From a virus, in UHGV virus genome UHGV-1943956: 17,807 nt of DNA; one strand, 5' to 3'. Position 1 is the first letter of the stretch; the number at the start of each line of letters is the position of its first letter. This document shows positions 521 to 16,422 of this stretch, in pieces. The position numbers and the translations under genes are program-made. Under the pieces are notes generated by a model. The model searched no databases. It was not told the origin of the DNA and was given only the letters and a program-made list of their open reading frames with translations.

Positions 521-544
521 ATAAAAAACCCGCCAGGCGGCGGG
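521..544 (-). terminator. Intrinsic terminator, candidate tR' downstream of Q
   Basis: Minus strand reads CCCGCC-gcct-GGCGGG followed by TTTTTTAT: a 6-bp GC stem, 4-nt loop and U-tract. It sits about 80 bp downstream of the Q stop codon, where lambdoid phages place tR'. Confidence 0.55.
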
Positions 545-593
545 GTGTAAAAAATCTTCTAACGTCAGGCATAAAACGCCCATCGTTAGAGCA

Positions 594-621
594 AATTTAC
601 CACAGATTCGGGAAAAATCAA
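594..621 (-). promoter_or_regulatory. Candidate late promoter (PR'-like) with presumed qut region
   Basis: Minus strand has TTGATT (-35, ~621-616), a 16-bp spacer and TAAATT (-10, ~599-594), between the Q stop (627) and the hairpin at 544-521. Hexamers matched by eye only. Confidence 0.3.
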
Positions 622-626
622 CAACA

Positions 627-1819: not shown

Positions 1820-1831
1820 CAGTCACCTCTT

Positions 1832-2878
1832 TTACCCAAGCACGCCAGTTGCAAAGGCGTGATCAAGAAAACGAAAAATTAAATCAACCTGAGAACCATG
1901 CTTTTCTTCGAACGCCAGAGGATCCGCATGAAGCTCGTTGTGATGCTCCCGACACAGCGGTAGCGTGAAAATATCGTGAGATTTTGTCCCCATTCCGCCC
2001 TGACCATGACCAATCAGGTGATGGGGATCGTCGGCTGGCTTACCACAACACGCACACGGCTGTGTCTTCACCCAGCGTGTGTATTTCTCGTTAACCCAGC
2101 GGCGACGTTTAGGTCGTTTCATGAAAGATTCCGGAGACTCAGGATCAACGGCAATGCTGACCACCGTCTCTTCCTGTGGCGGGTTTTGCTGGTGGGCGTG
2201 AGGCAGCGGCGCAAGATTTTTTGTGCGCTGCTTCAGTATGCTGGTGGCGGTCTGCTCTCCCGGTACGATGTCGCTTTCACGGTACATTGAGCGGATTTTT
2301 TCCGCACGCAACCCCAGCGAACGACGTAATACCGCTTCCGGTAGCGCGTCCGCCACCTGATTGCGGACCGCCCACCAGGATAATTCAGCCAGCGATAATT
2401 CCCGCTCCTGCGAGCCATTCATTGCATGGCGTATGACGTCAATCATCCATGCAGACAGGTTTTGGTGAGCAAGTTGCCCGAGTGATTCGGAGGTCTGGTC
2501 GCGCAGCTGGTTGTCGCAGTGCCAGCACAACACCATTGCGCCGGTACCATAACGGTGAATGACGGTTTCACTGTGGTGATAATCGCCGTGTGGCCACTGG
2601 CAGGATTTAACATGGCGCAGTAACCAGTCAGACAATGCGCCAGCGCCACCAGCAGCACGAATCACTCGTTCGTCGCTGAAAAATGGCAGTAATGATTTAT
2701 CCTCCGCCAGCGGCTGGCGAACGGCAGGAACGACCCCGGACGGCAGATTACGCATGCTTTTCGGTTCCGGCTCCACCAGTACCCGGGTATTGTGGAATAC
2801 CGGCATGGATTCACGGCCCGGCTTAACGATCACCAGCCCGAGTTCCGGTACCAGAACAGGTCGAAGTAATACCCGCAC
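1832..2878 (-). CDS. DUF968-family protein (YdfU-like) with C-terminal Cys/His-rich HNH-like motif
   Basis: 348 aa with GTG start at 2878 preceded by ggagg. C-terminal block [28 protein letters not shown]...LCREHHNELH. Paralogous to 16423-17412. Confidence 0.8.
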   Translation of the reverse strand: MRVLLRPVLVPELGLVIVKPGRESMPVFHNTRVLVEPEPKSMRNLPSGVVPAVRQPLAEDKSLLPFFSDERVIRAAGGAGALSDWLLRHVKSCQWPHGDYHHSETVIHRYGTGAMVLCWHCDNQLRDQTSESLGQLAHQNLSAWMIDVIRHAMNGSQERELSLAELSWWAVRNQVADALPEAVLRRSLGLRAEKIRSMYRESDIVPGEQTATSILKQRTKNLAPLPHAHQQNPPQEETVVSIAVDPESPESFMKRPKRRRWVNEKYTRWVKTQPCACCGKPADDPHHLIGHGQGGMGTKSHDIFTLPLCREHHNELHADPLAFEEKHGSQVDLIFRFLDHAFATGVLG

Positions 2879-2879
2879 G

Positions 2880-3152
2880 TTACCTCCAGATGCGTTGCTG
2901 GAATGTGCGGGACGGACGCGGTGGGCGTTCAGAGTAAGGAAGCCTGACGGAGATTATCCAGTGACGATAATCGAGGCTGAGGGCTTTCTTAATCTCGTAT
3001 CCGCGTCTGCGGTAGTTATGAATTAGCCATTCGGCCTGTTCTTCAGTACATGGTGGGTGTTGGTACCAGTCGGTTTTAAATGCGTGTGAACGCCGCCCAT
3101 GCCGGATGGCAAGGTCGGTATCAGAATTGTGAAATTTGGTTTTGTGCGCCAT
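2880..3152 (-). CDS. Hypothetical 90-aa protein at the position Rem occupies in the Qin prophage
   Basis: ORF stop overlaps the DUF968 start region. Lies between hok and DUF968 as in the Qin order quuQ-ydfU-rem-hokD. I cannot confirm sequence identity to Rem from memory. Confidence 0.5.
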   Translation of the reverse strand: MAHKTKFHNSDTDLAIRHGRRSHAFKTDWYQHPPCTEEQAEWLIHNYRRRGYEIKKALSLDYRHWIISVRLPYSERPPRPSRTFQQRIWR

Positions 3153-3221
3153 CTGTTTTCTCTGCTGGCGCAGCAGGTGTCAGGTGTTCAGGCTGACGTG
3201 CGAATTGTAAACCAGAATGCC

Positions 3222-3250
3222 AGAAAAAAACAAAACCCGCCGAAGCGGGT
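3222..3250 (-). terminator. Intrinsic terminator downstream of hok
   Basis: Minus strand reads aaCCCGCttcgGCGGGttttgttttttt: a GC stem-loop followed by a long U-tract, about 70 nt after the hok stop codon. Confidence 0.55.
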
Positions 3251-3319
3251 TAAGTGCGGGTGCGTTGAGGATGCCTGACACATCAGAGGTGGCGAGGGAT
3301 TTCTCCCCCGCCAGGTCTC

Positions 3320-3475
3320 TTACTCCTCAGGTTCGTAAGCTGTGAAGACAGCGACCTCCGTCTGGCCGGTTCGGAGTCGTACCTCGCAGAGGTCTTTCCT
3401 CGTTACCAGTGCCGTCACTATGACGGTTAAACAGATGACGATCAGGGCGATTAACATCGCCTTTTGCTGCTTCAT
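3320..3475 (-). CDS. hokD: Hok-family type I toxin (HokD/RelF-like), 51 aa
   Basis: Hand translation of the reverse complement gives MKQQKAMLIALIVICLTVIVTALVTRKDLCEVRLRTGQTEVAVFTAYEPEE. This is a single transmembrane helix followed by the Hok signature LCEVR.R.G..EVA. SD aaggag lies 8 nt upstream. Absent from the ORF track because it is under 60 aa. Confidence 0.85.
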   Translation of the reverse strand: MKQQKAMLIALIVICLTVIVTALVTRKDLCEVRLRTGQTEVAVFTAYEPEE

Positions 3476-3488
3476 AGCCTGCTTCTCC

Positions 3489-3518
3489 TTGACCTTTCGG
3501 TCCGTAAGAGGCTAATCT
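3489..3518 (+). promoter_or_regulatory. Candidate promoter for a Sok-like antisense RNA
   Basis: Plus strand has TTGACC (3489-3494), an 18-bp spacer and TAATCT (3513-3518), directly upstream of and antisense to the hok translation-initiation region. This matches hok/sok architecture. The 3' end of the antisense RNA is undefined. Confidence 0.3.
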
Positions 3519-3733
3519 CTATGTGTCGCATAGATATGGCCTCAGATTAATGTTAAGCGTCTTGCAGGACGCGTAATGTTAACTGGGGCTTTTCTCTATC
3601 TGCCTTTTGGTGTTCATGCCTGAGACAGATAGCCTCAAGCACCCGCAGTTATTCTACTTAACTAAGATTTCCCCGCAAACCGTTTTTGTCCGGCACAGTA
3701 AATATCCAACTAAACCAATGGCGTTCGCTGTAT

Positions 3734-3952
3734 TTACCGCCAGTATTCAATGCACATGACCGCCATGAACACCCCTAAAAAAAGGGCATTTATATGTCCA
3801 AACATTAATATCAAAACATCAATTTTTTCCATATACCTTGCTGTGAAGATGATGGGCATACATGATGCGAACAACCAGAACGCAACAAACAAAAACTGCA
3901 ATGCGTTTTTCATTATTCCCCCTACAATCAATGTGCAATAACATTTAAACAC
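3734..3952 (-). CDS. Small hydrophobic membrane protein (72 aa) in an AT-rich island
   Basis: Strong SD (agggggaa) 5-6 nt upstream of the ATG at 3952. Sequence is highly hydrophobic with two predicted TM segments. Local AT content is clearly higher than the flanks. Confidence 0.5.
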   Translation of the reverse strand: MFKCYCTLIVGGIMKNALQFLFVAFWLFASCMPIIFTARYMEKIDVLILMFGHINALFLGVFMAVMCIEYWR

Positions 3953-4033
3953 ACCTCAATTTGGCCGGACATATAAATATCTAAACCAGAAAAAATCACT
4001 TACATAGCGTTACAAACTCTTTAGTCTAAATAT

Positions 4034-4549
4034 TCATCGTAAAACATCCTCCACGCTTATCAGTCCATTTCGTTTCAGGTAATCCATCGCCTTCTCCGGT
4101 AATTTGCAGTCCGGCTGAGCTTTTTTCAGTTGACTGACCAGTCGTTTAACCCACATTGTTAATTCGCTAACCTGATTGCCGGATGCTGGTGGATTGTCGG
4201 CTTTACCCAGAATGGCAGCGCAGCAGGCCTCTCTGAGCACCCAGTCAACAGCATCCTTCCATGCTCCTGTTTCGACTGGCGGATTCTCACGCTTTACCTG
4301 TTCATAAAAGCGCACGGCTTTAACCAGTCCTTCTGATGTCACCGGGACTGGCGGGCCGATGAATAAGGCCTGAATTTCATAGTTCGGCCTGTCGTTACAA
4401 TCCTCTTTTGTCGGTACATATTTCCAGTCACCAGCCCACGGCTTCCCCTGAAAGTCTGTAACGTCTTTTTTCACGTAGCGATATCGCCATGCAACTGGTT
4501 TTGCCTGCCCTGCCGTTTCATGCCCTTCCTGATAATTAATCTCGCTCAT
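4034..4549 (-). CDS. Ea22-like family protein, paralog 1
   Basis: 171 aa starting MSEINYQ, the N-terminal signature shared with 5459-5881 and 5878-6564 and resembling lambda Ea22. ATGA overlap with the upstream small ORF. Confidence 0.7.
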   Translation of the reverse strand: MSEINYQEGHETAGQAKPVAWRYRYVKKDVTDFQGKPWAGDWKYVPTKEDCNDRPNYEIQALFIGPPVPVTSEGLVKAVRFYEQVKRENPPVETGAWKDAVDWVLREACCAAILGKADNPPASGNQVSELTMWVKRLVSQLKKAQPDCKLPEKAMDYLKRNGLISVEDVLR

Positions 4550-4722
4550 TCATCGCCCCACTCATCACAATATGCTTCGACCGGAGTTTTTCCTGCTTCA
4601 TAATCATCACGCCATGCTTCAGCATCAGCAGCACTGCCACCACGTAACTCTGCATAGTCCATTAACAGTTCATGCCATGCTTCAAAACTGACGTTGTATT
4701 TAGTTGAACCAAAATCAGCCAT
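4546..4722 (-). CDS. Hypothetical small acidic protein (58 aa), not in the ORF track
   Basis: Hand translation gives MADFGSTKYNVSFEAWHELLMDYAELRGGSAADAEAWRDDYEAGKTPVEAYCDEWGDE. SD-like gaggaag upstream. Stop overlaps the next start (ATGA). Fills an otherwise empty 165-bp gap in a tightly packed operon. Confidence 0.4.
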   Translation of the reverse strand: MADFGSTKYNVSFEAWHELLMDYAELRGGSAADAEAWRDDYEAGKTPVEAYCDEWGDE

Positions 4723-4897
4723 TTTGCTCTTCCTCTTCGTCTTTTATTTCGTGATATGAGTAATTGCAGTAGTTAAAGAAAATATCTTTTGCTTCGTCAT
4801 GTATTTCATCAGGCGTCGCATCATCATCCACTTCGAATTCATCCTCGAAATCTCCACCGGCTATTTCCGTTTCAATAATTATTTTAAACTTTCGCAT
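4715..4897 (-). CDS. Hypothetical small acidic protein (60 aa)
   Basis: ORF within the leftward operon, rich in Asp/Glu. Its start is preceded by an unusual hairpin between the SD and the ATG. Confidence 0.45.
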   Translation of the reverse strand: MRKFKIIIETEIAGGDFEDEFEVDDDATPDEIHDEAKDIFFNYCNYSYHEIKDEEEEQNG

Positions 4898-4990
4898 TTA
4901 ACTACCGCCCTTTCGGGCGGCCTCCTGATGTTCTGAGGGTGCAGAAATCCCTCCGGTTAAGGATTAAATTTTTAACAGAGCTAAATTTAA

Positions 4991-5347
4991 TTATTCAGTT
5001 CTGGATTTTGTCGCCCTGCGTATCCGCGCTTTCGCGTTACGCTCAATCTGAATTAGCTTTTCTATATTTTTTCGCCTTTCCCGCTCCTCCTGGCGCAAGT
5101 GCCTTACATCATCTGCCAGTCTGGTTTCTCTTTTCGCCACAGAGAGCATCCAGTCAAATGGCTCCACAACTGCACCGCAGATTTTACAGCGGACCTGACG
5201 CTCTTTTTCGTCAACCCGGACAGAGGCGTGATGACAATATGGTCTTTCCGATGGCTCATAAAGAAAATTAACCTGATTACGAGGGTCATCCTCTTTTACC
5301 GGAAATAAAACGATATTGCTTAACTCATCCTCTGGTTTTATTTCCAT
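4991..5347 (-). CDS. Hypothetical protein with Cys/His zinc-ribbon-like motif (118 aa)
   Basis: Strong SD aaggagagg upstream of the ATG at 5347. Motif CHH...CKIC followed by a basic, coiled-coil-like C-terminus. Confidence 0.65.
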   Translation of the reverse strand: MEIKPEDELSNIVLFPVKEDDPRNQVNFLYEPSERPYCHHASVRVDEKERQVRCKICGAVVEPFDWMLSVAKRETRLADDVRHLRQEERERRKNIEKLIQIERNAKARIRRATKSRTE

Positions 5348-5458
5348 GCTCCTCTCCTTTGATGCGAATGCCAGAGACGCGTAATGCGTGTTCTAGGTCA
5401 ATCAGGTAAAGCCAACTGCCATTTTCTTTAGGTATCATGACTTGTCGCTCATCTGCAT

Positions 5459-5881
5459 TTATCGGGTGTCCATATCGAAGGTCGTAGCGAGTCGGTAATT
5501 GAACTTCCCGCGCTTCCAGTTCAGCAATACGCTTGCACCCATCAGAGATAACTCCCTCGTAATACTCGCGCTGCTCGTTGAGTTNNNNNNNNNNNNNNNN
5601 NNNNNNNNNNNNNNNNNNNNNNNNNNNNNNNNNNNNNNNNNNNNNNNNNNNNNNNNNNNNNNNNNNNNNNNNNNTCTTTCCCGTTCATCCAGTAGTGCCA
5701 GCACGGTTTCTGGTCCGGTCAGAAATTTGAAGGCATTGAGCGCATCAATATCCACACCGTAATCTTTAAGTTCCTGTTCACTTAACAAATCATCATCAGC
5801 TGGCAACATTAACAGGCGTTCCATTGCTGGAATTGCACGTTCCGCCACCTCACGCAGTGACTGGTAATTAATTTCGCTCAC
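5459..5881 (-). CDS. Ea22-like family protein, paralog 2, interrupted by an assembly gap
   Basis: GTG start preceded by aaggagg. N-terminus MSEINYQSLREVAE... and LALLDERER, which resembles lambda Ea22. The reading frame crosses a 90-nt N run, so the 3' part and true length are unverified. Confidence 0.45.
   Translation of the reverse strand: MSEINYQSLREVAERAIPAMERLLMLPADDDLLSEQELKDYGVDIDALNAFKFLTGPETVLALLDERERXXXXXXXXXXXXXXXXXXXXXXXXXXXXXXNSTSSASITRELSLMGASVLLNWKRGKFNYRLATTFDMDTR
5585..5674. other. Assembly gap (run of 90 N)
   Basis: Ninety consecutive ambiguous bases. The real length and sequence are unknown. Confidence 0.99.
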
Positions 5882-6564
5882 TGGTTGCCTCCTTTGCGAA
5901 GCTGGGCAGCAAAGTCAACTAACCACTCCGTCATTTCAACCTTCCCTACCAGGTCTGAACCAGGGTGCATACAGCAATCACTCTGCGCCGCTTTGAAATC
6001 CTTATACTCATATTCTTGGGCCACCAGATTTTTTGCAGCTTCTATAGCAGCATCCACCCCCTGCGCCCGGACTTCAGCCAGGAAAGCATCAGTGGTTGGC
6101 GTTTCAGGTATCTGTCTCCTCATCCGTTCTATTGCATGATTGAACCCGAAGTCTTCCGCGAGAGATACGTCATCCATATTGTCATTGTCATCCTCAATAT
6201 CCCGTGATTCTGGAATTGCAGACTTTATTCCTGCATTCTCCGCTGTCAGCGCCGCGCACTTGGCCTCAAGAGCGGCAACCACTTCCTGATGGTCTTTGTA
6301 CTTAACGTATGAGCCGGAGATGTCATCACCTTCGGTGTTTAGCCATGCGTCATTGCAATTCACTGCGTAGGTTCTGATGCTCATGTTGATGCTCTCCCGC
6401 CCCTGACAGACGCCAGGCCAGTCAATAAAGTATCCGCAATGCCTACCCTCAGACGTGCGCGCAGGATAAATGCCGTTATGACCCGGCATAATATATGCTA
6501 CCCATTCATCTTGCGTTGCCTGTTCCGCCGCCTCGCGCAGTGCCTGATAGTCAATCTTGCTCAC
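5878..6564 (-). CDS. Ea22-like family protein, paralog 3
   Basis: 228 aa with GTG start preceded by aaggagg. N-terminus MSKIDYQALREAAEQATQDEW resembles lambda Ea22. Its stop overlaps the start of paralog 2 (GTGA). Confidence 0.7.
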   Translation of the reverse strand: MSKIDYQALREAAEQATQDEWVAYIMPGHNGIYPARTSEGRHCGYFIDWPGVCQGRESINMSIRTYAVNCNDAWLNTEGDDISGSYVKYKDHQEVVAALEAKCAALTAENAGIKSAIPESRDIEDDNDNMDDVSLAEDFGFNHAIERMRRQIPETPTTDAFLAEVRAQGVDAAIEAAKNLVAQEYEYKDFKAAQSDCCMHPGSDLVGKVEMTEWLVDFAAQLRKGGNQ

Positions 6565-6865
6565 TGGCAGCCTCCTTTGCCGGGATTTCTAACTTTTGAG
6601 TGGTTGTATCAAATTCAAACAACTTAACCACGTCATCAAACAGGACATAATCACCATCAGGATCTTCAGTCATATCTGCGCCACAATCCTGACCGCACGA
6701 GTCGCAACCATCCATATCAAGCTCGTATCGCTTCAGGTTTGCGATATTTGATAAATTCAGCGCCAGTACAGCCAGGTCATAAACCTCTTCGGCAGTGACA
6801 TCGCTGTTCAGTCCCATTTCATGGCGATATATGATTTTTTCTACTCGTTGTTTTGTGATCGTCAT
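6551..6865 (-). CDS. Hypothetical protein (104 aa from the ATG at 6865)
   Basis: Track ORF 6551..6889 begins at a TTG. The ATG at 6865 has a ggag SD upstream. The C-terminal region is acidic with a CDSCGQDCG motif. Start choice is uncertain; ATG 6817 is an alternative. Confidence 0.45.
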   Translation of the reverse strand: MTITKQRVEKIIYRHEMGLNSDVTAEEVYDLAVLALNLSNIANLKRYELDMDGCDSCGQDCGADMTEDPDGDYVLFDDVVKLFEFDTTTQKLEIPAKEAASEQD

Positions 6866-7136
6866 TTTTCTCTTCACTCCGATATACAAGGATTACTACA
6901 CCCCCTCTGCTGATTGCGCGAGCTGGATCCCCTGGTTCCATGCCGTCAATTCCGAAGGCTTCGGAAAACGCATTCATTGCCTTCTGGCGTTCATCCTGCT
7001 TACGGCGTTTATTCCATTTTTTCAGGAACAACAGCGACAGCCACCGTCCGCTGCAGAACACGATGTAAAAATAACCAAGGAGCGCCAGGCCGACATTCAG
7101 GGCCGTTTCTATGGTTAGTTGTGAGTCAGTTGCCAT
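6819..7136 (-). CDS. Hypothetical single-pass membrane protein (105 aa)
   Basis: Hydrophobic segment LNVGLALLGYFYIVFCSG followed by a basic KKWNKRRKQDERQK stretch. SD-like aggtaag upstream. Confidence 0.5.
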   Translation of the reverse strand: MATDSQLTIETALNVGLALLGYFYIVFCSGRWLSLLFLKKWNKRRKQDERQKAMNAFSEAFGIDGMEPGDPARAISRGGVVILVYRSEEKNDDHKTTSRKNHISP

Positions 7137-7374
7137 TTCTTACCTGTTTAAGTAACTGGTTGAACATAACACTTAGGGGATTGCTGTATCCAAACGGCAG
7201 ATTGTTTACGCAGTACAGAATCATTTTGTTTTTTTCTCCAGTTCGTACTATTAACCCATTCCACAATAACCGTGATAATTCATTACTGATAGAAGTTGCG
7301 CTTCTTCCAAGTGCGAGGGATATATCTTCTCTACTGCAATCTGGATTTTCCTGGATATACTCGATAACGGTCAT
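7126..7374 (-). CDS. Hypothetical small protein, possible winged-helix DNA-binding (82 aa)
   Basis: The ATG at 7374 has SD aaaggga 6 nt upstream, which I prefer over the track start at 7416 that has no SD. Segment SREDISLALGRSATSISNELSRLL is HTH-like. Confidence 0.5.
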   Translation of the reverse strand: MTVIEYIQENPDCSREDISLALGRSATSISNELSRLLWNGLIVRTGEKNKMILYCVNNLPFGYSNPLSVMFNQLLKQVRNGN

Positions 7375-7384
7375 GTGGTCCCTT

Positions 7385-7966
7385 TTACTTAATATCTGTT
7401 TCGGATTGCATGCCATGAGTATTCATTTCGTTAATAATTTCATCCAGAAGGATTTCAAGCCCTTCTCGACCCATATCTGAAAGAATGAAACCTTTATCAG
7501 GGGAAGTAGTGAGCATTTTCTGATAAAGAAACAGCGCTCTTCCCATTCCTTCAGTTTCGCCGTATTTTTGAATTAAATTCCATTCAATATACTGTTGTAA
7601 GGCAAATCGAATGGGGCCGGGATATATCGTCATAAACCCATACATCCCGTTATATACCACGGCGTGTTCAGTTGTTCCGTGTTCATTCAGGATATCAATT
7701 GTGCCGTTCTTGTCTTCTTCTTCGTTGATGAATGTCGTCACATACAACCATCGCCACTGAGCAACCTTCATCTCAACCGGAAGTTTACCCAGTAATCCTG
7801 CTTCGTCGGCTTGCGCCAGACACTGAAGGATACGTAAACCTCGCACATTAGGAGTATCGAATTCTCCGGCATCCAGACGACGTATGGCGTCGTGATAATC
7901 AATCGTCATACTGCCAGTTCGTATACCATTGGCTGTTGCTTCAGCCTGGAATTCATCGTATTGCAT
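7385..7966 (-). CDS. Hypothetical protein (193 aa), no recognisable family
   Basis: SD gagga upstream of the ATG at 7966. Starts 5 nt after the stop of the upstream 62-aa acidic ORF. Confidence 0.6.
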   Translation of the reverse strand: MQYDEFQAEATANGIRTGSMTIDYHDAIRRLDAGEFDTPNVRGLRILQCLAQADEAGLLGKLPVEMKVAQWRWLYVTTFINEEEDKNGTIDILNEHGTTEHAVVYNGMYGFMTIYPGPIRFALQQYIEWNLIQKYGETEGMGRALFLYQKMLTTSPDKGFILSDMGREGLEILLDEIINEMNTHGMQSETDIK

Positions 7967-7971
7967 GATAT

Positions 7972-8160
7972 TTATTCCTCATCTTCATCTTCATCTGCTG
8001 GTGCAATAACGTCATATCCTGCCTTTTCTGCAATAAACAGGAATGTTGAAAGAGTTCCTACAAGTTCATCGTCATGAACATGGCGAATGAATATTACTTT
8101 CCCGTTTTTGATGGTCAGCAATATTCTGGTTTGTTCGTGTTCTGCTGTTTTCTGATGCAT
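7972..8160 (-). CDS. Hypothetical small protein with polyacidic C-terminal tail (62 aa)
   Basis: SD gggag upstream. C-terminus APADEDEDEE. Immediately precedes the 193-aa gene. Confidence 0.5.
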   Translation of the reverse strand: MHQKTAEHEQTRILLTIKNGKVIFIRHVHDDELVGTLSTFLFIAEKAGYDVIAPADEDEDEE

Positions 8161-8354
8161 TATTATCTCCCGTATGCTTTACGCAGAAATAAGCAGGCAA
8201 TATGCATGTAATTTTCACCGTATTGTGCAATAAGGCAGGCGGTCTTGTGTGATGCCATATTCTTTATAAAAGTCACAATAAAGCCTCCTGTGGTTTAAGG
8301 TTGTAACAATCCCCGGCGATAAAACCGCAATAAACGTTCAAGGCATATTTGTTG

Positions 8355-8720
8355 TTATTGCGCTAATTCTTTTTCGGCAGCAGCTTTTGTATACTCACAT
8401 GCAAAACTCAGAATTTCGCTGCCGAGTGTTTTCGTTTCGTGATTACTGGACATATGTAATACCTGTGTTGCATGCAATAAATGATAAACATTTACCGCAA
8501 ATGAATCAGGCTCCAGGCAAATGCCTTCGTAATTATCTTGCTGTGAGGTTGTTTCTGTCATTGCTCCTGAAGTGCATACGAGCCTGTTTTTGACAATTCT
8601 CTTTTCTCTAATCACTATATCGGCAACATCTATTGCCTTTACAACCTCCGGGAGAAGTTCCGGGTTTGTATAATCAAAGTCATCAACATGGAGAACAGTT
8701 ATGTTTTCGAACTTTTTCAT
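8355..8720 (-). CDS. Hypothetical protein (121 aa)
   Basis: SD gagga 5 nt upstream of the ATG at 8720. No family recognised. Confidence 0.55.
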   Translation of the reverse strand: MKKFENITVLHVDDFDYTNPELLPEVVKAIDVADIVIREKRIVKNRLVCTSGAMTETTSQQDNYEGICLEPDSFAVNVYHLLHATQVLHMSSNHETKTLGSEILSFACEYTKAAAEKELAQ

Positions 8721-8848
8721 GGTTTCCTCAGCTGACTTATATGTTCTGCTATATAGCGAGTCTCAGAAGTGTTTTCATATTGAGACTGTTTCCGCAATGA
8801 TTGATAAAAATGTTCGCATGTACCTTGAGGGGCGAAGCGGCGATTATG

Positions 8849-9352
8849 TCACCATTGGTATTGGTTCTTCCGTAGAAGAGCTTCGCGAGATAAGGGGCAA
8901 ACTTGTTGAGATGCGTCATGGTGTTGCTGCTCCTCACTTTTTGGTTGCTCCGGAGGAGTAACCTCACCAGTTAACAGCCACATCGGATCGCAGCCAAGAA
9001 TATTTGCCAGTGGGATAAGCATACTGATAGTTGGTTCATACTCTCCGCTCTCCCACTGGATGATAATTTCTTCATCGAGATCGAGCAGCCTGGCGAGTTC
9101 GGCGGTTGTTAAGCCGCAGGCTTCGCGTTGGGTGCGAAGACGGGTGTTGATTGCAGAATTTTTGTTCTGTAAAAGCATTGCTGACGATAGCTTTCTGGAT
9201 ATGCTATTTGTCATATCCCATGCCAGTCCTGCGCATGACTCTATATCGCTAGAGAGCGTAGCATCAGGTGTTGCTTTTGCTATTAGTGTAATGAGGCTGC
9301 CGAGGTTTTTCAGTTCTTCGAGACAGTCAAGAGTTGTAGCTTTATTGATCAT
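8849..9352 (-). CDS. HTH (XRE-type) DNA-binding protein with N-terminal extension (167 aa); first gene after the left operator
   Basis: Central HTH segment LRTQREACGLTTAELARLLDLDEEIIIQWESGEYEPTISMLIPLANILG. SD-like gaggt upstream of the ATG at 9352. The internal ATG at 9178 is an alternative start. Confidence 0.55.
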   Translation of the reverse strand: MINKATTLDCLEELKNLGSLITLIAKATPDATLSSDIESCAGLAWDMTNSISRKLSSAMLLQNKNSAINTRLRTQREACGLTTAELARLLDLDEEIIIQWESGEYEPTISMLIPLANILGCDPMWLLTGEVTPPEQPKSEEQQHHDASQQVCPLSREALLRKNQYQW

Positions 9353-9392
9353 GAGATGATACCTCAGTTACGAACTTTGTTTTATGGTAACT

Positions 9393-9431
9393 AAGGTATC
9401 AAGGTGTGGCAAGTGATTTTTGATACTTTGG
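9393..9431. promoter_or_regulatory. Left operator/promoter region (OL/PL-like)
   Basis: Inverted pair AAGGTATCAA (9393-9402) and TTGATACTTTGG (9420-9431) shares the TTGATAC core with the sites near OR. It lies directly downstream of the repressor gene and upstream of the leftward operon. Candidate -35 and -10 hexamers on the minus strand overlap it. Confidence 0.45.
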
Positions 9432-9455
9432 TTTCTTTTTGTGTTTTGTGTCTGG

Positions 9456-10112
9456 TCAGAAAATATCCCACCTGGCATCAACCACAACACCTACTATTTC
9501 GCAATCATTGTCCATTTCTATGATTGGATATTGTGGATTAAGGGGCTTTAGAAACGCCTTTCCCATGTCAGAAATATATTTTTTGAATGTTGCTTCATTG
9601 GTAGATTTTTTTCTGGCGATGACGTAACACCCTGAAAAAACTTCTTTATCTGGGTTGACAAGGATCGACATTCCTTCAGGAAATGTTATTCCTACGGGCG
9701 AAGTCATTGAGTCTCCGTGCACTTCCAGCCAGAACCCCCTCTCACCAGCGTATTTTACAGAATGCCTCCAATTATCCTGATCATACATGTTGTAGTCATC
9801 ACCAGAAGTTGCGAATAATCCTGCCTGAACCCAGTTAATTACAGGGTAAGAGTGTGCTGTGTCTCTCTGTGGGCAGCTCTTAACATTATTTTCCCAATGC
9901 TTATCTTTTTCATCTCCGTTCTGAAGCCACTGCGGTGAACACCGCAGTGCAGCTGCAACTTTAAAAAGGGTGTCACCGTTGAAACTTTTTGTAAGGCCTT
10001 GCTCGGCTTTACTGATTGCAACTCTGGTGATCCCAGCTTTTTTAGCCAACGCATCTTGTGTTAACCCAGCTTTTTGCCGTGCGTTGATGAGACGTTCACC
10101 TAAAGACTTCAT
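9456..10112 (-). CDS. CI/LexA-type phage repressor (N-terminal HTH_XRE, C-terminal S24 peptidase)
   Basis: The ATG at 10112 has SD aggag 7 nt upstream. HTH segment LTQDALAKKAGITRVAISKAEQG. Ala-Gly candidate cleavage site in VQAGL. S24 catalytic motifs GDSM (Ser) and FKKY (Lys). Flanked on both sides by operator repeats. Confidence 0.85.
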   Translation of the reverse strand: MKSLGERLINARQKAGLTQDALAKKAGITRVAISKAEQGLTKSFNGDTLFKVAAALRCSPQWLQNGDEKDKHWENNVKSCPQRDTAHSYPVINWVQAGLFATSGDDYNMYDQDNWRHSVKYAGERGFWLEVHGDSMTSPVGITFPEGMSILVNPDKEVFSGCYVIARKKSTNEATFKKYISDMGKAFLKPLNPQYPIIEMDNDCEIVGVVVDARWDIF

Positions 10113-10134
10113 TTTTCTTCTCCTCTCATGGCTG

Positions 10135-10208
10135 TTGATACTAAAGTAACAGAATTTCTTGATACTTTGGATTCCTGTGGTTAACATCGTTGAATAACAA
10201 AGTATCTG
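10135..10208. promoter_or_regulatory. Right operator/promoter region (OR with divergent PR and PRM-like promoters)
   Basis: Three copies of the operator core: TTGATACTAAAG (10135-10146), TTGATACTTTGG (10159-10170) and an inverted GATACTTTG (10198-10206). A plus-strand candidate PR has TTGATA (10159-10164), a 17-bp spacer and TAACAT (10182-10187). Confidence 0.5.
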
Positions 10209-10223
10209 GTGTGAGACTAAAGA

Positions 10224-10451
10224 ATGACCCTTTATGAAATATTAAAAATTCAATTTAAAACCAATGCCGCTATTGGTCGCAGGTTCCCAAAGAAAGGAAG
10301 GCCTCGTGGCAGTCAAGGTGTTGGAAAGTGGAAAACGCGAGGTGTTCCGGAGGATGTTGCCATTCTTTGTCATCTGGATCCGAGCATTCCATATACACAC
10401 CCAAGTCTAGCGAATACAGAAGATGACAAGCCCACAGGAGACCAACAATGA
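10224..10451 (+). CDS. Hypothetical small basic protein at the cro position (75 aa)
   Basis: Its stop overlaps the start of the next gene (ATGA). It has a weak SD and no obvious HTH, and could instead be an untranslated leader. Confidence 0.3.
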   Translation: MTLYEILKIQFKTNAAIGRRFPKKGRPRGSQGVGKWKTRGVPEDVAILCHLDPSIPYTHPSLANTEDDKPTGDQQ

Positions 10452-11155
10452 ACACCGCAATTTTTAACGGCAAAGCATCCATGACCAGCGTTGAGATCGC
10501 AGAGCTGGTGGGAAGCCGACCAGATAGTGTTAAGAGAACTATTGAAACACTGGCTAAAAAGGGAATCATCCAATTTCCACAGACTGTGGAAATTGAGAAT
10601 AAACAATCACTTGGGCCTCGCCGATTTTCTAGCGCGTATGTATTCGAAGGTGAACGAGGTAAGCGCGACAGCATCATTGTCGTCGCACAGCTCTGTCCTG
10701 AATTCACATCTCGCCTGGTAGATCGCTGGCGCGAACTGGAAGAACAGATCCGTAAGCCAATGAGCGAAATCGAAATGGTTGCCGCGATGGCTCTTGAAGC
10801 CGTTCGCCAACAGAAACGGATCACTCAGGTGGAAGAAAAAGTCAGCCACGTTGCTGAAACAGTCGAGCAAATTAAAAAGGGCACTATTCGTGAGGGCTAT
10901 GCCGGATATCGCCAACTGAAAGCAAAAACCGGTTTGTCAGATGATAAATGCCGCAATCTGGTGAACGCCTATCAAATTCCTACAGACACCCATGAGTTCA
11001 TGACGCCGGACGGATTGTTGTCACGTCGCGCAATTGTTGCTGTGGAACCGTTTATGGCTGCTTTTTATCGGGTTATGGAGGAAGCAGAACCGCGAGGGAC
11101 TCGCTGGTATCACCCGAAAATGGGGTTATTTCAGGTTATTGGTTGGCAGCGGTGA
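10448..11155 (+). CDS. Putative phage regulatory protein with Rha-like N-terminal DNA-binding domain (235 aa)
   Basis: SD aggag 9 nt upstream. N-terminal MTSVEIAELVGSRPDSVKRTIETL matches the pattern of the Rha N-terminus seen in the next gene. Confidence 0.6.
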   Translation: MNTAIFNGKASMTSVEIAELVGSRPDSVKRTIETLAKKGIIQFPQTVEIENKQSLGPRRFSSAYVFEGERGKRDSIIVVAQLCPEFTSRLVDRWRELEEQIRKPMSEIEMVAAMALEAVRQQKRITQVEEKVSHVAETVEQIKKGTIREGYAGYRQLKAKTGLSDDKCRNLVNAYQIPTDTHEFMTPDGLLSRRAIVAVEPFMAAFYRVMEEAEPRGTRWYHPKMGLFQVIGWQR

Positions 11156-11343
11156 AAAAAAGCCGGGAGTAACCCGGCTCACTCAACATCAATAACGGGG
11201 AGCTGTTTCGCATAAAACGGCTCCGAAACATCCAAGAACAGTTCTAAAGATATCAGCAGCTATATGATCATTTCAAGACCAAATATTGATTCTGCAATTT
11301 CGGGACGTTACACTGTCTCCGCACCTTATAAAGCGGGTGCCGG

Positions 11344-11369
11344 GATTGGCGTCCTGAAATTCGCACATG
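11344..11369. repeat. Direct repeat copy 1 (GATTGGCGTCC...AAATTCGCACATG)
   Basis: GATTGGCGTCC at 11344-11354 and AAATTCGCACATG at 11357-11369. Both segments recur at 11509-11549. Confidence 0.6.
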
Positions 11370-11374
11370 CGCAT

Positions 11375-11397
11375 AACCGCGCTTCAGCGGTTTTTTT
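11375..11397 (+). terminator. Candidate intrinsic terminator inside the rightward operon
   Basis: AACCGC-gcttca-GCGGTT stem-loop followed by TTTTT, lying between the two direct-repeat copies. Confidence 0.4.
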
Positions 11398-11508
11398 GCG
11401 CACGTTTCCTCACATCCAAATTATGGTGGGGCGTGCAGGGGCATCGAAAGATGCGCCGGGGTCATGTGCGACCGGTTACGCCAACCCTGTACGTCTCACC
11501 ACCTCTGT

Positions 11509-11549
11509 GATTGGCGTCCCATGTGGTGAGTTTTCAAAATTCGCACATG
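11509..11549. repeat. Direct repeat copy 2 (with 15-nt insertion)
   Basis: GATTGGCGTCC at 11509-11519 and AAATTCGCACATG at 11537-11549, ending 12 nt before the Rha start codon. Confidence 0.6.
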
Positions 11550-11560
11550 AGGATGTCACT

Positions 11561-12112
11561 ATGGCAACCACCCCTACCCAAACTCACCCTAAAATTGATG
11601 TTATCCATGGGAAGGCTGTTACCTCTTCTTTGGCCGTTGCCGAATATTTCTGCAAGCAGCACAAAAACGTTATTCAAAAAATCCAGACGCTTGAGTGCTC
11701 TGTTGAATTCACTGAGCTGAATTTTCAGCCCAGTGATTACACCGATTGCACAGGCCGCAAACTACCTTGCTATCAAATCACCCGCGATGGCTTCGCGTTC
11801 CTTGCTATGGGCTTTACTGGCAAACGTGCAGCCCGGTTCAAAGAGGCATACATCAACGCCTTTAACCAGATGGAGAAGAATTTATCTGGTGCTGACGCGG
11901 TTGATATGTCAGCTGTCGCACGAAACGCCAGAGGCGTATACCTGCATTTGCGTGAAATCCATCAAATCTGGACAAGCCAGCTTTATCCAATGCTTAAGGC
12001 CGTTGAATCTCCGCTGGCTAGCAAACTGTACGACCGTGTTGGTGATGCTGTTTTTGGCGCTGCACTTGTTGATTCCAGGCTGAATGGTTCTGACAAGGAG
12101 GTTCGCCCATGA
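11561..12112 (+). CDS. Phage regulatory protein, Rha family
   Basis: The ATG at 11561 has SD gagga 8 nt upstream. Sequence VTSSLAVAEYFCKQHKNVIQKIQTL...GRKLPCYQITRDGFAFLAMGFTGKRAARFKEAYINAFNQMEK matches the Rha family signature. The 99 upstream in-frame codons of the track ORF are treated as non-coding. Confidence 0.8.
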   Translation: MATTPTQTHPKIDVIHGKAVTSSLAVAEYFCKQHKNVIQKIQTLECSVEFTELNFQPSDYTDCTGRKLPCYQITRDGFAFLAMGFTGKRAARFKEAYINAFNQMEKNLSGADAVDMSAVARNARGVYLHLREIHQIWTSQLYPMLKAVESPLASKLYDRVGDAVFGAALVDSRLNGSDKEVRP

Positions 12113-12303
12113 TTAGTTACGAAATCATCATCTCCACTACGGAATACAGAAACGATGTATCAGTTCGCACGGATGTATCTGTCTGGCACCGTCGCTATAA
12201 ATCCAGAAAAACAGCGGAACTGAAAGCGGCAGAGATGTGTGAAACCATCTCAATGAAAGGTAGCCCGGTTAAATACGTAACTACGGCGGAGGTGCGTCCA
12301 TGA
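12109..12303 (+). CDS. Hypothetical small protein (64 aa)
   Basis: ATGA overlap with the Rha stop. Part of a tightly coupled operon. Confidence 0.5.
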   Translation: MISYEIIISTTEYRNDVSVRTDVSVWHRRYKSRKTAELKAAEMCETISMKGSPVKYVTTAEVRP

Positions 12304-12524
12304 TCCGCCACATCGTTAATTCCCTGTATCACCGATACAACCGTTGCCCCCGTGTGGGGCAGTGGTTCGCCACCAGCAACGGTCACGTTCTGCGGGTTTG
12401 CCTAGTCAACGCTGAAAGCCAGAAAGTCGTGTGCGAACTACAGGGGCGTAGCTACACCATCAGTTACCCTCTGGCGGTATTTCTGTCTGGAAAAATGTTT
12501 AAGCGTCTGGGAGGTGTGGCGTGA
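12300..12524 (+). CDS. Hypothetical small protein (74 aa)
   Basis: Start overlaps the upstream stop. In-operon position. Confidence 0.5.
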   Translation: MIRHIVNSLYHRYNRCPRVGQWFATSNGHVLRVCLVNAESQKVVCELQGRSYTISYPLAVFLSGKMFKRLGGVA

Positions 12525-12820
12525 ACTGTTTTCAGTTTGTGTGCGGATGTGCTTTCGATAACCCGATTCAGCGCCTGATTATGTTGCGTGTTTTGATGTC
12601 GGGTTCTTCAGACGGTGAAGGCGAGAGAGTTATTGATCATCAGGTGCTTGCTGATTTCTGCTGTTGTTCTAAGCAAGCGATATTCAGGGAAACCCTGGCA
12701 CTGGAAAGAGCTGGTTATCTTCATATCCGAAAAATTGCAACGCTTACTATTGATGCAAAAGCCAGACTACAACCTGCGCGTGGCTACACAATTCTCATGC
12801 CGCGGAAGGAGGTTGTATGA
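12521..12820 (+). CDS. Hypothetical protein, possible DNA-binding (99 aa)
   Basis: GTG start preceded by ggagg. Its stop overlaps the start of the O-like gene. Confidence 0.55.
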   Translation: MNCFQFVCGCAFDNPIQRLIMLRVLMSGSSDGEGERVIDHQVLADFCCCSKQAIFRETLALERAGYLHIRKIATLTIDAKARLQPARGYTILMPRKEVV

Positions 12821-13809
12821 GCCGTTACGCCCCCACACCGGAAGTTATGGCTATTGGTCAAATTAATATTTCCGGCAATGTTACACCTGCGAACTGGTGG
12901 AAATATATTCGACTACCCAGTGGGCGTCCGGATGCGACGGCTATCGCTCTGCTTTCAGAGATCGTTTACTGGTACCGCCCGACAGAGGTCAGGGATGAGC
13001 ACACCGGAGCGTTGCTGGGATATCGCAAGCGTTTTCAGGGCGACAAACTGCAAAGAAGCTACCAGGCGTTTGCTGAGCAGTTTGGTTTCGGGAAAAGGGA
13101 AACCGCAGATGCGCTGAAGCGTCTGCGCGATGCAGGGTTTATTACTCTGGATTTACGCACGGTGGAAATGCTCGATGGGGTGAAATGCAGCAATATTTTG
13201 TTTGTCGGGATCAACCCACAGGCAATTGCGGCCATCACCACACCTTCTTCTGTTTCGCCAGAAAGTAACAGCAATAATGCAATCAGCGATACAGCTATTA
13301 CGTTAAAACGGAACACCCCCCGACGTCATAACGGAACAGGGGATACGCCGAATGTTGATACAAATACAGAGATTACTACAGAGATTACAACGGAGACTAA
13401 AAACACTATTGATGCGTCCGCTGACGCGTCTGCGCCAGCGCGTTCTGCCCGACAGGAATATTCACCGGAATTTGAACAGGCCTGGCAGGAATATCCCAAA
13501 CGTGCTGGTGGCAATTCCAAGTCAGCAGCCTTCAAAGCCTGGAAAGCCCGTATCAGGGAGGGAATAAAACCGGAGACCATGCTTGATGGCGTGAAGCGGT
13601 ATGCCGCTTGGGTACGTGCTACAGGAAATACCGGCACACAGTTCGTGAAGCAGGCTGCGACGTTCTTTGGACCCGATCGTCACTTCGAAGATTACTGGCA
13701 ACAGCCAGCCGCTCACGGAGGTGGGCGACAGCGACAGGTCGATGTCCTGGCTGGCCTGGGAGCCATGTCTGACAAATTCGGTAAATCCAGTAACAAATTG
13801 ACATTCTGA
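12817..13809 (+). CDS. Putative replication initiation protein (O-like replisome organiser)
   Basis: Strong SD ggaaggagg. Directly precedes the DnaC-like and DnaB-like genes. Has a low-complexity linker (TEITTEITTETK, DASADASA) and a conserved-looking C-terminal block EFEQAWQEYPKRAGGNSKSAAFKAWKARI. Function assigned from position and architecture. Confidence 0.65.
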   Translation: MSRYAPTPEVMAIGQINISGNVTPANWWKYIRLPSGRPDATAIALLSEIVYWYRPTEVRDEHTGALLGYRKRFQGDKLQRSYQAFAEQFGFGKRETADALKRLRDAGFITLDLRTVEMLDGVKCSNILFVGINPQAIAAITTPSSVSPESNSNNAISDTAITLKRNTPRRHNGTGDTPNVDTNTEITTEITTETKNTIDASADASAPARSARQEYSPEFEQAWQEYPKRAGGNSKSAAFKAWKARIREGIKPETMLDGVKRYAAWVRATGNTGTQFVKQAATFFGPDRHFEDYWQQPAAHGGGRQRQVDVLAGLGAMSDKFGKSSNKLTF

Positions 13810-13819
13810 GGTGACAGCG

Positions 13820-14719
13820 ATGATGACGATTGACCAACGTGAGAAACAAACAAGACTACAGGCGCGAATGGATGAGTTACGGGCAGAAATGGATGAGTTA
13901 CGGGCAGAGATTGCATTTGCTCAGAAGGGCGAAAAGCCATGGCCTTATCGTTCCTGCCTGATGCGTGAAGGTCGCGGATATTGCGAAAAACACGGTAAAT
14001 ATCGTACGCATATACTGGTGTGGATCGATCGTAATGGCGAGGACAGAGAAAAAATTTCATGCTGCCCTGACTGCTTGATCGCTGAGGCCAGTGATTTGAC
14101 CATGGAACTGTCGTCCCTCAAGGCGGAAGAACTGACTGATAACGCCGGAATTGCTCTGCGTTTTCGGGACTGCGAGTTTGATAATTATCTGGAGGTTAAT
14201 CCTGACGCAGCCAGAAATCTTGCGGCCTGTCGCCGCTATGCGGAGAACTGGCCAGATATGCTGGAGAACGGTACCAGTCTTGTTATGACCGGCAGTTGCG
14301 GTACCGGGAAAAATCATCTGGCGGTATCAATGGCAAAACACATCATCCGTAACTATCTGGCCAGTGTGGAGATCACCGACGTGATGCGCCTTACCCGGGC
14401 TGTGAAAAACTGCTGGCGGAATGACAGTGAAAAAACAGCGGATGACGTCATTGAGCATTATGCGTCACTGGATTTGCTGATTGTCGACGAAGTCGGCGTT
14501 CAGTTTGGCAGTGCGGCTGAAATGGCCATTTTGCAGGAAATTATCAATGCCCGGTATGAGGGTATTTTGCCAACTATCCTGATCAGCAACCTTTCACCGG
14601 AAGAATTGTGGGCGTTCATCAGTCCCCGGATTGCCGACAGAATCACCGATGGCGGGCGCAACTGGTTGTCGTTTAACTGGCCCAGCTACCGTTCTCGTAT
14701 CGGAGGTGTTGCCGCATGA
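13820..14719 (+). CDS. DnaC-like helicase loader (AAA+ ATPase) with N-terminal Cys-cluster extension
   Basis: Walker A GSCGTGKNHLA and Walker B LLIVDEVG. The ATG at 13820 is preceded by gaggtg. N-terminal cysteines (C..C...CC..C). Confidence 0.85.
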   Translation: MMTIDQREKQTRLQARMDELRAEMDELRAEIAFAQKGEKPWPYRSCLMREGRGYCEKHGKYRTHILVWIDRNGEDREKISCCPDCLIAEASDLTMELSSLKAEELTDNAGIALRFRDCEFDNYLEVNPDAARNLAACRRYAENWPDMLENGTSLVMTGSCGTGKNHLAVSMAKHIIRNYLASVEITDVMRLTRAVKNCWRNDSEKTADDVIEHYASLDLLIVDEVGVQFGSAAEMAILQEIINARYEGILPTILISNLSPEELWAFISPRIADRITDGGRNWLSFNWPSYRSRIGGVAA

Positions 14720-16116
14720 CCAGCCAGAACACCCCGGCATGGCGTAACGATGACCTGGAAGGCGCTGTCATCGGTGCGTTTTTTCTGCGTGGGGCCGATC
14801 CGGAAGTGATGGATATTCTGGCCACACTTCCGGCGGATGTATTTTTTGTGCGTCAGTACCGGGATATTTACGCGGGGATTTGCAGACAGGCTCGCATATC
14901 CGGCGTCATTGACCCCGTACTGCTGTGCAATGAGATGCCGGAACTTGCCCCGGTGATTACCGACACCGGACGCAAAACCTGGGTGAAGTCTTCACTGGAG
15001 CACTATGTCGCAGCGTTGCGGCGCAATGCCGCACTGCGCGATGCAGAAAAAACACTGACTGAAGCATTACAGAATTTACGTGATGCGTATACCTGTGAAG
15101 CAGCCGAGGATGCCCTGAAGGATGTGCAGAACATGATGGCCTCACTGTCGACCGGAAAGGGCGTCATTCAGCCGGTTCACATTGATGATGTCCTTCCGGA
15201 AGTGGTCGACCGTGTTGAATGCCGCAATCAGGGACTGGAGAAATCCAGGGCGCTGATGACCGGTATTGATGAACTGGACGCAAAAACGGGCGGTATGGAG
15301 CCCGGAGACCTGGTATTCATTGCCGCCCGTCCTTCGATGGGGAAAACCGAACTTGCGCTGGACATCATCGACAAGGTGACTGAGCAGGGGCATGGCGTGC
15401 TTCTGTTCACCATGGAGATGGCGAACATCCAGATTGGTGAACGTATGGTGTCTGCTGCCGGTGGAATGCCGGTATCCCGTCTTAAGTCTGTTGCCCGTTT
15501 TGAAGATGAAGACTGGGCGCGTTTCTCGCAGGGCGTGGGACGAATGACGGGGCGTAATATCTGGATGGTGGATCAGGCAAACCTGACCATTGATGAGATA
15601 TGTGCAACCACGAAGCACCACCGGATGAAACACCCGGAAACGGCGCTGGTGGTGGTCGATTACCTCGGTCTGATTAAAACCCGCAGCACGGGGCGTCACG
15701 ACCTTGCTGTGGGGGAAATCTCAAAGGGACTTAAAAGCCTGGCAAAATCCGGCGGTTTCCCGCTGATTGCTCTGAGCCAGCTCTCCCGAGGCGTGGAATC
15801 CAGACCCAATAAACGTCCCATGAACTCAGACCTGAAAAACTCCGGGGAAATAGAGGCTGATGCCGACATCATTCTGATGCTTTACAGGGATGAGGTGTAT
15901 AACCCGGATACACAGGCCAGAGGCATAGCAGAAATCAACATCACGAAACAGCGTAATGGCACACTCGGGACCATTTACCGGCGTTTTCATAACGGACATT
16001 TTCTGCCTGTGGACCAGGAGAGTGCCCGGGTTCTTTCCACACCCATGACGCCGGGCAATCCGCGCAGATACAGCAATAACCGCATGTCGGGCAGTAAAAC
16101 GGAGCGTTTATTTTGA
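14716..16116 (+). CDS. Replicative DNA helicase, DnaB family
   Basis: 466 aa. Walker A ARPSMGKTELALD, Walker B-like VVVDYLGLI, and DnaB-like C-terminal motifs. SD ggaggtg. Confidence 0.9.
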   Translation: MTSQNTPAWRNDDLEGAVIGAFFLRGADPEVMDILATLPADVFFVRQYRDIYAGICRQARISGVIDPVLLCNEMPELAPVITDTGRKTWVKSSLEHYVAALRRNAALRDAEKTLTEALQNLRDAYTCEAAEDALKDVQNMMASLSTGKGVIQPVHIDDVLPEVVDRVECRNQGLEKSRALMTGIDELDAKTGGMEPGDLVFIAARPSMGKTELALDIIDKVTEQGHGVLLFTMEMANIQIGERMVSAAGGMPVSRLKSVARFEDEDWARFSQGVGRMTGRNIWMVDQANLTIDEICATTKHHRMKHPETALVVVDYLGLIKTRSTGRHDLAVGEISKGLKSLAKSGGFPLIALSQLSRGVESRPNKRPMNSDLKNSGEIEADADIILMLYRDEVYNPDTQARGIAEINITKQRNGTLGTIYRRFHNGHFLPVDQESARVLSTPMTPGNPRRYSNNRMSGSKTERLF

Positions 16117-16370: not shown

Positions 16371-16422
16371 TGGCTGAATTTTTTTCTCCTGCGTTCATGC
16401 AATACCGTTCGCTGAGGTGACC

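Follow-up and report, generated by a model that had tools for sequence, protein, structure and literature searches.

The leftward gene block at positions 7385–9352 of virus genome UHGV-1943956 was analysed in the context of the whole 17,807-nucleotide stretch in which it lies (here referred to as the window). With modest confidence, we read this block as the promoter-proximal stretch of a leftward (PL) early operon that CI represses, in a lambdoid E. coli prophage of the phiP27 type that has neither N nor a Rec module. The block consists of five leftward genes, which are a helix-turn-helix (HTH) regulator, L08, orf37, L07 and L06, and one convergent rightward gene, here called the + open reading frame (+ ORF). 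It is a variant of the lambdoid early-left operon built from catalogued but uncharacterised families, ordinary in nature and with no evidence for a new kind of system. The description "uncharacterised" is right, and a role can be given only to the first gene, whose product is a DNA-binding regulator. What the data show is how the block is built, that its genes are coding and conserved, and the HTH assignment; everything beyond that in this reading is inference. The control region and the six genes are as follows.

9353–9455, minus strand: leftward operator and promoter (OL/PL) control region, from operator-like inverted repeats, a promoter scan and a motif count
8849–9352, minus strand: XRE/Cro-C1 HTH regulator, first PL gene, ORF of 167 amino acids (aa), matching HTH_3, phrog_4739 and phrog_4836
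8701–8961, plus strand: overlooked convergent gene (+ ORF), 86 aa (80 aa if the ATG at 8719 is the start), matching phrog_6104 (E = 5e-49)
8355–8720, minus strand: L08, 121 aa, two domains, matching phrog_5451 (E = 5e-83)
8163–8276, minus strand: orf37, 37-aa micro-protein VTFIKNMASHKTACLIAQYGENYMHIACLFLRKAYGR, from its GTG start, AGGAGG Shine–Dalgarno sequence and conservation
7972–8160, minus strand: L07, 62 aa, matching phrog_340 (E = 3e-22)
7385–7966, minus strand: L06, 193 aa, conserved early protein with a predicted alpha/beta fold, from a family alignment and AlphaFold

Control region and operon setting

The OL/PL region directly upstream of the leftward block is real. The 104-bp spacer between cI (9456–10112/10187) and the first leftward ORF contains three 15-mer operator-like sites (9357–9371, 9387–9401 and 9420–9433), the first of which reads TGATACCTCAGTTAC while the second is its reverse complement with one mismatch. 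The promoter scan placed a PL-like promoter, TTGCCA-17-TACCAT, in the same spacer, with the −35 hexamer TTGCCA at 9412–9407 and the −10 hexamer TACCAT at 9389–9384. The window contains five copies of the core motif WARGTATCW compared with 0.63 expected, and four of these are located at OL and the rightward operator OR. The neighbouring cI (9456–10187, minus strand) matches Peptidase_S24 at 78.5 bits. The three sites and the promoter put the block directly downstream of OL/PL, in agreement with the original prediction, which was made from the letters of the DNA, and the block likewise fills the position that N and the early-left functions occupy in lambda.

Like the PL early-left operon of lambda, the block is transcribed leftward from just downstream of a tripartite operator beside cI and lies ahead of Ea22-like genes. 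It differs from the lambda operon (N, ral, sieB, cIII, kil, gam, bet, exo) in having no homologue of any lambda PL gene, in starting with a DNA-binding HTH protein rather than an RNA-binding antiterminator, and in the absence of a Rec module. The regulator would take the place of N at PL, and when CI leaves OL and PL fires it would be the first protein produced, with orf37, L07 and L06 following as putative early proteins acting on host or phage processes.

Profile searches revealed no Rec genes of the exo/bet/gam type between the cI and Ea22 genes, whereas Chi (GCTGGTGG) is present in 14 copies in the 17.8-kb window compared with 0.57 expected from shuffled sequences; none of the copies is within 7385–9352. 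[quoted passage not shown] Judged from this partial and hybrid window, the phage belongs to this Rec-module-less, Chi-rich class, which explains the missing Gam, Bet and Exo. The LLS early-left genes of that class (yfbR/yfdQ/yfdP type) belong to different families from those of the block.

Gene content and coding status

Four leftward genes had been predicted after the left operator. All four ORFs are found on the minus strand as placed, but the inventory was short by two genes and the tail of the first ORF is spurious. Judging from the substitution patterns, all six genes of the block are protein-coding and under purifying selection. In comparisons with homologues of 32–77% identity the six genes show third-position substitution bias and conservation of length, and against diverged homologues the substitutions at first, second and third codon positions number 46/31/91 in L06, 27/14/36 in L07 and 60/45/78 in L08. 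This concentration of substitutions at third codon positions indicates that the ORFs are real genes.

Searches of Pfam, NCBIfam, PHROGs and PADLOC profiles with all block proteins returned nothing beyond generic HTH matches and PHROG families without an assigned function. As predicted, no product could be recognised as N, Kil, CIII, Ral, SieB, Gam, Bet or Exo, none of which gave a profile match in Pfam, PHROGs or NCBIfam; the profile searches, which had been proposed as a check, reached no characterised family beyond the generic XRE HTH of the first product. The products other than the regulator match only PHROG families of unknown function and nothing in Pfam, NCBIfam, PADLOC or the PDB, where sequence searches with L06, L08 and L07 gave no match. 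In the literature, looked up by accession, PHROG id and phiP27, no functional study of the block genes came to light. To call the genes undescribed, as had been suggested, is nevertheless too strong, as they are L06–L10 of phiP27, are members of PHROG families, and are annotated as hypothetical in hundreds of genomes.

Orthologues and conserved gene order

The region is ~88% identical to phiP27 (L06–L10) and to the series of phages encoding the Shiga toxins (Stx) Stx1a and Stx2a, 99.5% identical to phage PhiR49_2 up to position 9139, and 100% identical in strains CE10 and AR_0013. Of 5426 complete E. coli genomes, 380 carry the block, in each case chromosomally. Phages phiP27 (Stx2e, NC_003356), the Stx1a/Stx2a phages (LC5678xx), ASU11 and PhiR49_2 carry orthologues whose order is unchanged, directly left of the gene for an S24-type CI and beside the same operators, and the block is a member of this group. 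Protein identities to these orthologues, all of which are annotated as hypothetical, are 95% for L08, 95% for the HTH protein, 65–91% for L06 and 49–95% for L07. The relatives also differ from the window in two respects: the + ORF of phiP27 itself is broken by a ~430 bp insertion, and the Stx phages have a tandem-HTH regulator, only the core of L08, and no + ORF.

The syntenic set (regulator, + ORF, L08, orf37, L07 and L06) extends across temperate phages of Escherichia, Citrobacter, Salmonella and Klebsiella at 30–65% protein identity. The order L08, orf37, L07, L06 is conserved in Citrobacter and Salmonella, orf37, L07, L06 in CharmingMan, and L07, L06 in Klebsiella phages. Conservation of gene order at such levels of protein identity is more typical of core early functions and argues for these rather than for sporadic defence cargo.

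The first gene of the operon

HTH_3 is matched at residues 72–126 of the regulator with 43.3 bits compared with a Pfam gathering cut-off of 23, which assigns the protein to the XRE/Cro-C1 family; the PHROG matches are phrog_4739 (E = 1e-98) and phrog_4836 (E = 4e-40). The protein is composed of an N-terminal helical domain (residues 1–65), the HTH (72–126) and a conserved end ...MWLLTG at about residue 128, so that the N-terminal extension noted in the prediction is real. The predicted length of 167 aa stands only in part: residues ~1–131 are conserved, whereas residues 132–167 (8849–8957) are spurious antisense read-through. The tail is not conserved and differs in P27, ASU11, Citrobacter and Salmonella. 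The tail region is occupied by the conserved plus-strand gene, and the minus-strand frame contains stop codons there in ASU11; the HTH protein is therefore conserved only up to ~131.

The nearest solved domains in the PDB are P22 C2 (E = 4e-6) and the 434 repressor. Residues 68–132 of the regulator align with P22 C2 and 434 repressor/Cro across the whole domain (E = 4e-6 to 2e-3). In contrast to P22 C2 and the 434 repressor, the regulator has no S24 cleavage or dimerisation domain and carries an exchangeable N-terminal helical domain instead, and its relatives bear two tandem HTH domains, as in Stx1_14040 (216 aa) and ASU11 (237 aa). In the DNA alignment, the window, P27 and PhiR49_2 share a deletion by which HTH1 is joined to the end of HTH2, which identifies the regulator, on this alignment, as a single-HTH deletion derivative of the tandem-HTH relatives.

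Exchange of the immunity region is accompanied by exchange of the N-terminal domain (~65 residues), whereas the HTH hardly changes; one type of N-terminal domain is common to the window, P27 and Stx1, and ASU11 and PhiR49_2 have others. From the near identity of the HTH across different immunities we infer that the DNA target of the regulator is outside the immunity region. The regulator probably binds there and may tune early-left or lysis–lysogeny transcription. No CII is recognisable in the right operon of this phage.

Three more specific assignments of the regulator were considered and rejected. A LexA/CI-type autocleavable repressor is contradicted by the lack of an S24 match in the 167-aa protein. 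Membership in the DicA subfamily (NCBIfam NF007257) fails at 48.6 bits compared with a cut-off of 101, with the HTH alone aligned. Lambda CII has no Pfam or NCBIfam match to the regulator, and the gene is located in the left operon and not to the right, after cro.

The convergent gene and L08

The + ORF encodes a small beta-beta-alpha-beta-alpha protein; it shares 20 nt with the start of L08 and 113 nt with the tail of the HTH ORF. In a comparison with phage ASU11, at 24% nucleotide divergence, exactly 86 codons are kept, with 16/12/35 substitutions by codon position and 25 synonymous codon changes. Homologues with 57–97% identity and the same third-position bias occur in E. albertii, Salmonella and Citrobacter. 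In phiP27 (~5086–5575, corresponding to 8808–8960 of the window) the ~430 bp insertion includes the plus-strand ORF L09 and interrupts the + ORF after codon 36. A candidate promoter is situated upstream.

8590–8618, plus strand: candidate promoter for the + ORF, TTGACA-17-CACTAT, proposed from its match to the consensus

The + ORF faces PL and is thus placed for expression when PL is silent, that is, in the lysogen; after induction it would be shut off by convergent PL transcription. The arrangement resembles lambda cII/OOP in that the 3' end of a regulator gene is overlapped by a convergent transcription unit, and a PHROG label of "CII-like" is attached to the regulator. It differs from cII and OOP RNA in that there is no CII sequence match, the antisense unit encodes a conserved protein, and the overlapping pair, known here from sequence alone, is in the left operon instead of the right. 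Membership of the + ORF product in the GIY-YIG nucleases was considered and was not significant, and the weak recurrent Pfam matches among 15 scanned members of the + ORF family amounted only to noise.

L08 has a conserved N-terminal domain (residues 1–47) and a variable C-terminal domain (~57–121, phrog_4587). The C-terminal domain occurs alone (66–80 aa) in the Stx phages, and the Prokaryotic Genome Annotation Pipeline (PGAP) calls the ORF as only 68 aa in strain CE10. Homologues of 32–67% identity conserve the protein sequence of the first 47 codons, and 121 aa is for this reason probably the correct length. The C-terminal domain matches the N-terminal domains of the PhiR49_2 regulator (43% identity, E = 8e-9) and of ASU11 gp50 (31% identity, E = 3e-4), and in the homologue P0062 the N-terminal domain of L08 is joined to an ASU11-type domain. 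By these matches L08 and the regulators take their small helical domains from a common pool, suggesting that they are physical partners. With its C-terminal domain in the family of the N-terminal domains of alternative regulator alleles, L08 may be a partner of such regulators or modulate them. Homology between the N-terminal domain of the window's regulator and the C-terminal domain of L08 was also sought and was rejected, as BLAST gave nothing, hmmsearch −1.5 bits and hhalign a probability of 0.45%.

Prophages of Citrobacter and Salmonella with unrelated, non-S24 repressors show exactly this arrangement of the regulator, the + ORF and L08. The shared features are the 20-nt overlap of divergent start codons and a convergent overlap of ~100 nt.

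orf37, L07 and L06

The micro-protein orf37 is conserved in seven phages and prophages and is full-length and mostly ungapped in P27, ASU11, Stx1_14040, Citrobacter, Salmonella and CharmingMan, with the consensus MTF[IL]K..A..KTA.L.A..G..Y..IA.L[FY]L[RK]KAYGR. Its substitutions by codon position are 10/3/17, 10/4/20 and 12/5/20 in three comparisons, and it is annotated as a hypothetical protein in Stx1_14040 and PhiR49_2.

L07 had been described as a 62-aa polyacidic-tailed protein. The gene is real and the tail ADEDEDEE is present, but the tail is lineage-specific: the orthologues in P27 and ASU11 (49–56% identity) lack it and end in ...PPAKEQTL. As the tail is not conserved, its interpretation as a DNA-mimic feature was rejected. 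The core of L07 was predicted by eye as a beta-hairpin plus helix, and two "anti-repressor" PHROGs are matched weakly in their C-terminal parts (E = 5e-6 and 5e-4).

The L06 family forms 75 clusters at 50% identity among 1.84 billion proteins; its members are mostly 190–220 aa long and none has a Pfam domain. An AlphaFold model from a 55-sequence alignment has a mean predicted local distance difference test score (pLDDT) of 93.9 and a predicted template modelling score (pTM) of 0.88, and consists of three beta-meander-plus-helix segments. A Foldseek search of BFVD with this model gave nothing below E = 0.1. L06 is therefore a protein with a confidently predicted fold that has, as modelled, no relative in the PDB or BFVD. 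Weak recurrent Pfam matches among 55 scanned members were noise, with DUF1980_C in 8 of 55 at E ≥ 0.0035. An internal three-fold repeat, prompted by MTIDYHDAIRRL / MTIYPGPIRFAL and by the secondary-structure pattern, was rejected at hhalign E values of 0.07–0.55.

Temperate phages of Klebsiella, Aeromonas and E. coli carry homologues of L06 in their early-left operons, and even in a prophage with L06 only 32–34% identical the layout of repressor, N-extended HTH protein, further genes and L06 recurs. A homologue with 37% identity (L008 5001–5612) is located just upstream of the primase in a satellite resembling P4 and the phage-inducible chromosomal islands (PICI), in the order integrase, Rha-like, Ash-family, small genes, L06-like, 118-aa protein, Zn-ribbon/Toprim/DUF927 primase and PerC. 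Next to the L06 homologues lie other PHROGs of unknown function (1886, 1737) or proteins of the Ant/Bro-N/Rha type, and no function follows by association.

Alternative explanations

Several observations weigh against reading the block as part of a CI-repressed early operon headed by a regulator. The scan of the block found no terminators, no DNA target was found for the regulator, and the sole link of the regulator to CII is the PHROG annotation of phrog_4836 as "CII-like regulator". The proposed partnership of L08 rests on other regulator alleles and not on the window's own. Since phiP27 is viable with its + ORF interrupted, the + ORF is dispensable. The hexamers and spacing of its candidate promoter are kept in the ASU11, P27, Citrobacter and Salmonella loci, but this conservation is confounded by L08 coding on the other strand (IVKNR / ADIVI) and, with the promoter lying within the L08 coding sequence, proves nothing. 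Finally, the L06 homologue in the satellite fits an accessory or host-directed role equally with a core phage role.

This last point bears on the possibility, raised in the original prediction, that the block is cargo for exclusion, anti-defence or host takeover and is expressed in the lysogen or very early; this could apply to single genes as well, above all L06, L07, orf37 and the + ORF. The repressor-adjacent position is typical for such genes and characterised homologues are absent; L06 has a confident fold without known relative and is found in the P4/PICI-like satellite, an occurrence common to many proteins directed at host or helper; the + ORF points against PL and could be expressed in the lysogen; and orf37 and L07 are near the lambda Kil/CIII class in size. 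Kil and CIII of lambda are small host-directed peptides. However, PADLOC-DB v2 yielded only generic HTH matches (RmrA, CapH and HTH_VI) for the regulator and CI and nothing for L06, L07, L08, orf37, the + ORF or distant homologues, the genes are syntenic and conserved across genera instead of sporadic, and the acidic tail of L07, a possible DNA mimic, is not conserved. Nothing found in these searches links the block to defence or anti-defence, and we consider it possible but unlikely that the block is such cargo.

A toxin–antitoxin or abortive-infection module was also considered, with the HTH protein as antitoxin or regulator and L08 or the + ORF as toxin. Weak NCBIfam and PADLOC HTH matches point to the MqsA, HipB, Y4mF, CapH and RmrA families, and the three genes are tightly packed and overlapping, with the packing conserved. 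Yet the matches are far under the family cut-offs and concern the generic HTH only, the genes are convergent or divergent and not a co-directional pair, phiP27 has kept the regulator with a disrupted + ORF, and the Stx phages lack both the + ORF and the N-terminal domain of L08, all of which makes such a module highly improbable. It is also barely plausible that the block is a decaying remnant of a cryptic or rearranged prophage with some ORFs fortuitous. Such decay would account for a regulator that has lost one HTH domain and gained a spurious tail, for a hybrid window in which a PL operon without xis/int runs into the nin/Q region of another prophage, and for ORFs truncated or omitted by PGAP, but all six genes have third-position bias and length conservation against homologues of 32–77% identity, phages obtained as particles (phiP27, ASU11, PhiR49_2 and Stx phages) carry these genes intact, and the single-HTH form is common to phiP27 and PhiR49_2.

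The block represents a compact set of conserved "known-unknown" early genes in ~7% of complete E. coli genomes, with Shiga-toxin phages included. A regulator replacing N at PL in N-less lambdoid phages could affect induction and hence toxin expression. The antisense gene and the 37-aa micro-protein are examples of genes often missed by annotation pipelines. The main leads are the fold of L06, a confidently modelled protein without structural relative, and the triad of regulator, antisense gene and L08. One may speculate that the triad is an overlapping-gene switch at the immunity border, in which the 86-aa antisense protein is made only in the lysogen and silenced by PL at induction while L08 titrates the regulator via the shared helical domain, and that L06 is the first member of a new fold family, of proteins aimed early at host or helper (in anti-defence or takeover, for example) and common to temperate phages and P4/PICI-like satellites. 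We regard this combined scenario as decidedly doubtful.

Neighbouring features and structure of the window

Two further features of the window are listed here.

7126–7416, minus strand: MarR-like winged-helix ORF, 96 aa, matching phrog_1687 (E = 1e-24) and MarR_2 (E = 1e-4)
167, 484, 2188, 2240, 2646, 4185, 10504, 12370, 13504, 15645, 16295, 16648, 16919 and 17048: Chi sites in the window

The MarR-like ORF is next downstream in the same operon, outside the 7385–9352 block, and shares 32 nt with the end of L06. Stx1_14040 and the Stx1 phages have it annotated, but PGAP does not call it in CE10. The sole non-coding stretch within the block is 8277–8354, where the segment AATCCCCGGCGAT(A/T)AA(A/G)CCG(C/T)AATA (plus strand) is kept in an otherwise diverged Stx1 phage. 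An Rfam scan of 7000–10600 found no RNA family. On the other side of the control region, the ATG at 10112 is a likelier start of cI than 10187, giving 218 aa as in P27 L11 and having a GAGGAG Shine–Dalgarno sequence. The 75-aa protein in the cro position (10224–10451, plus strand) has no Pfam HTH match, and its sole PHROG match is phrog_4749, of unknown function.

The window is a hybrid of two prophages. Positions 5352–17789 are 99.6% identical to the P27-like prophage of CE10, and 163–5374 share 97% identity with the nin/Q region of another lambdoid prophage, found in O104:H4. The PL operon consequently lacks xis/int and continues into DUF968 (1832–2878), RusA (1445–1819) and the antiterminator Q (627–1448). 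A second DUF968 is located at the right end in the opposite direction, forming inverted repeats (1839–2149 and 17095–17405) that are 78% complementary; in CE10 the right-end DUF968 is followed by the antiterminator QuuD. The hybrid structure probably arose from recombination or inversion between prophages. The window also contains an ORF for a Hok-family type I toxin (3320–3475, minus strand, 51 aa, MKQQKAMLIALIVICLTVIVTALVTRKDLCEVRLRTGQTEVAVFTAYEPEE), which corresponds to hokD of the O104:H4 prophage.

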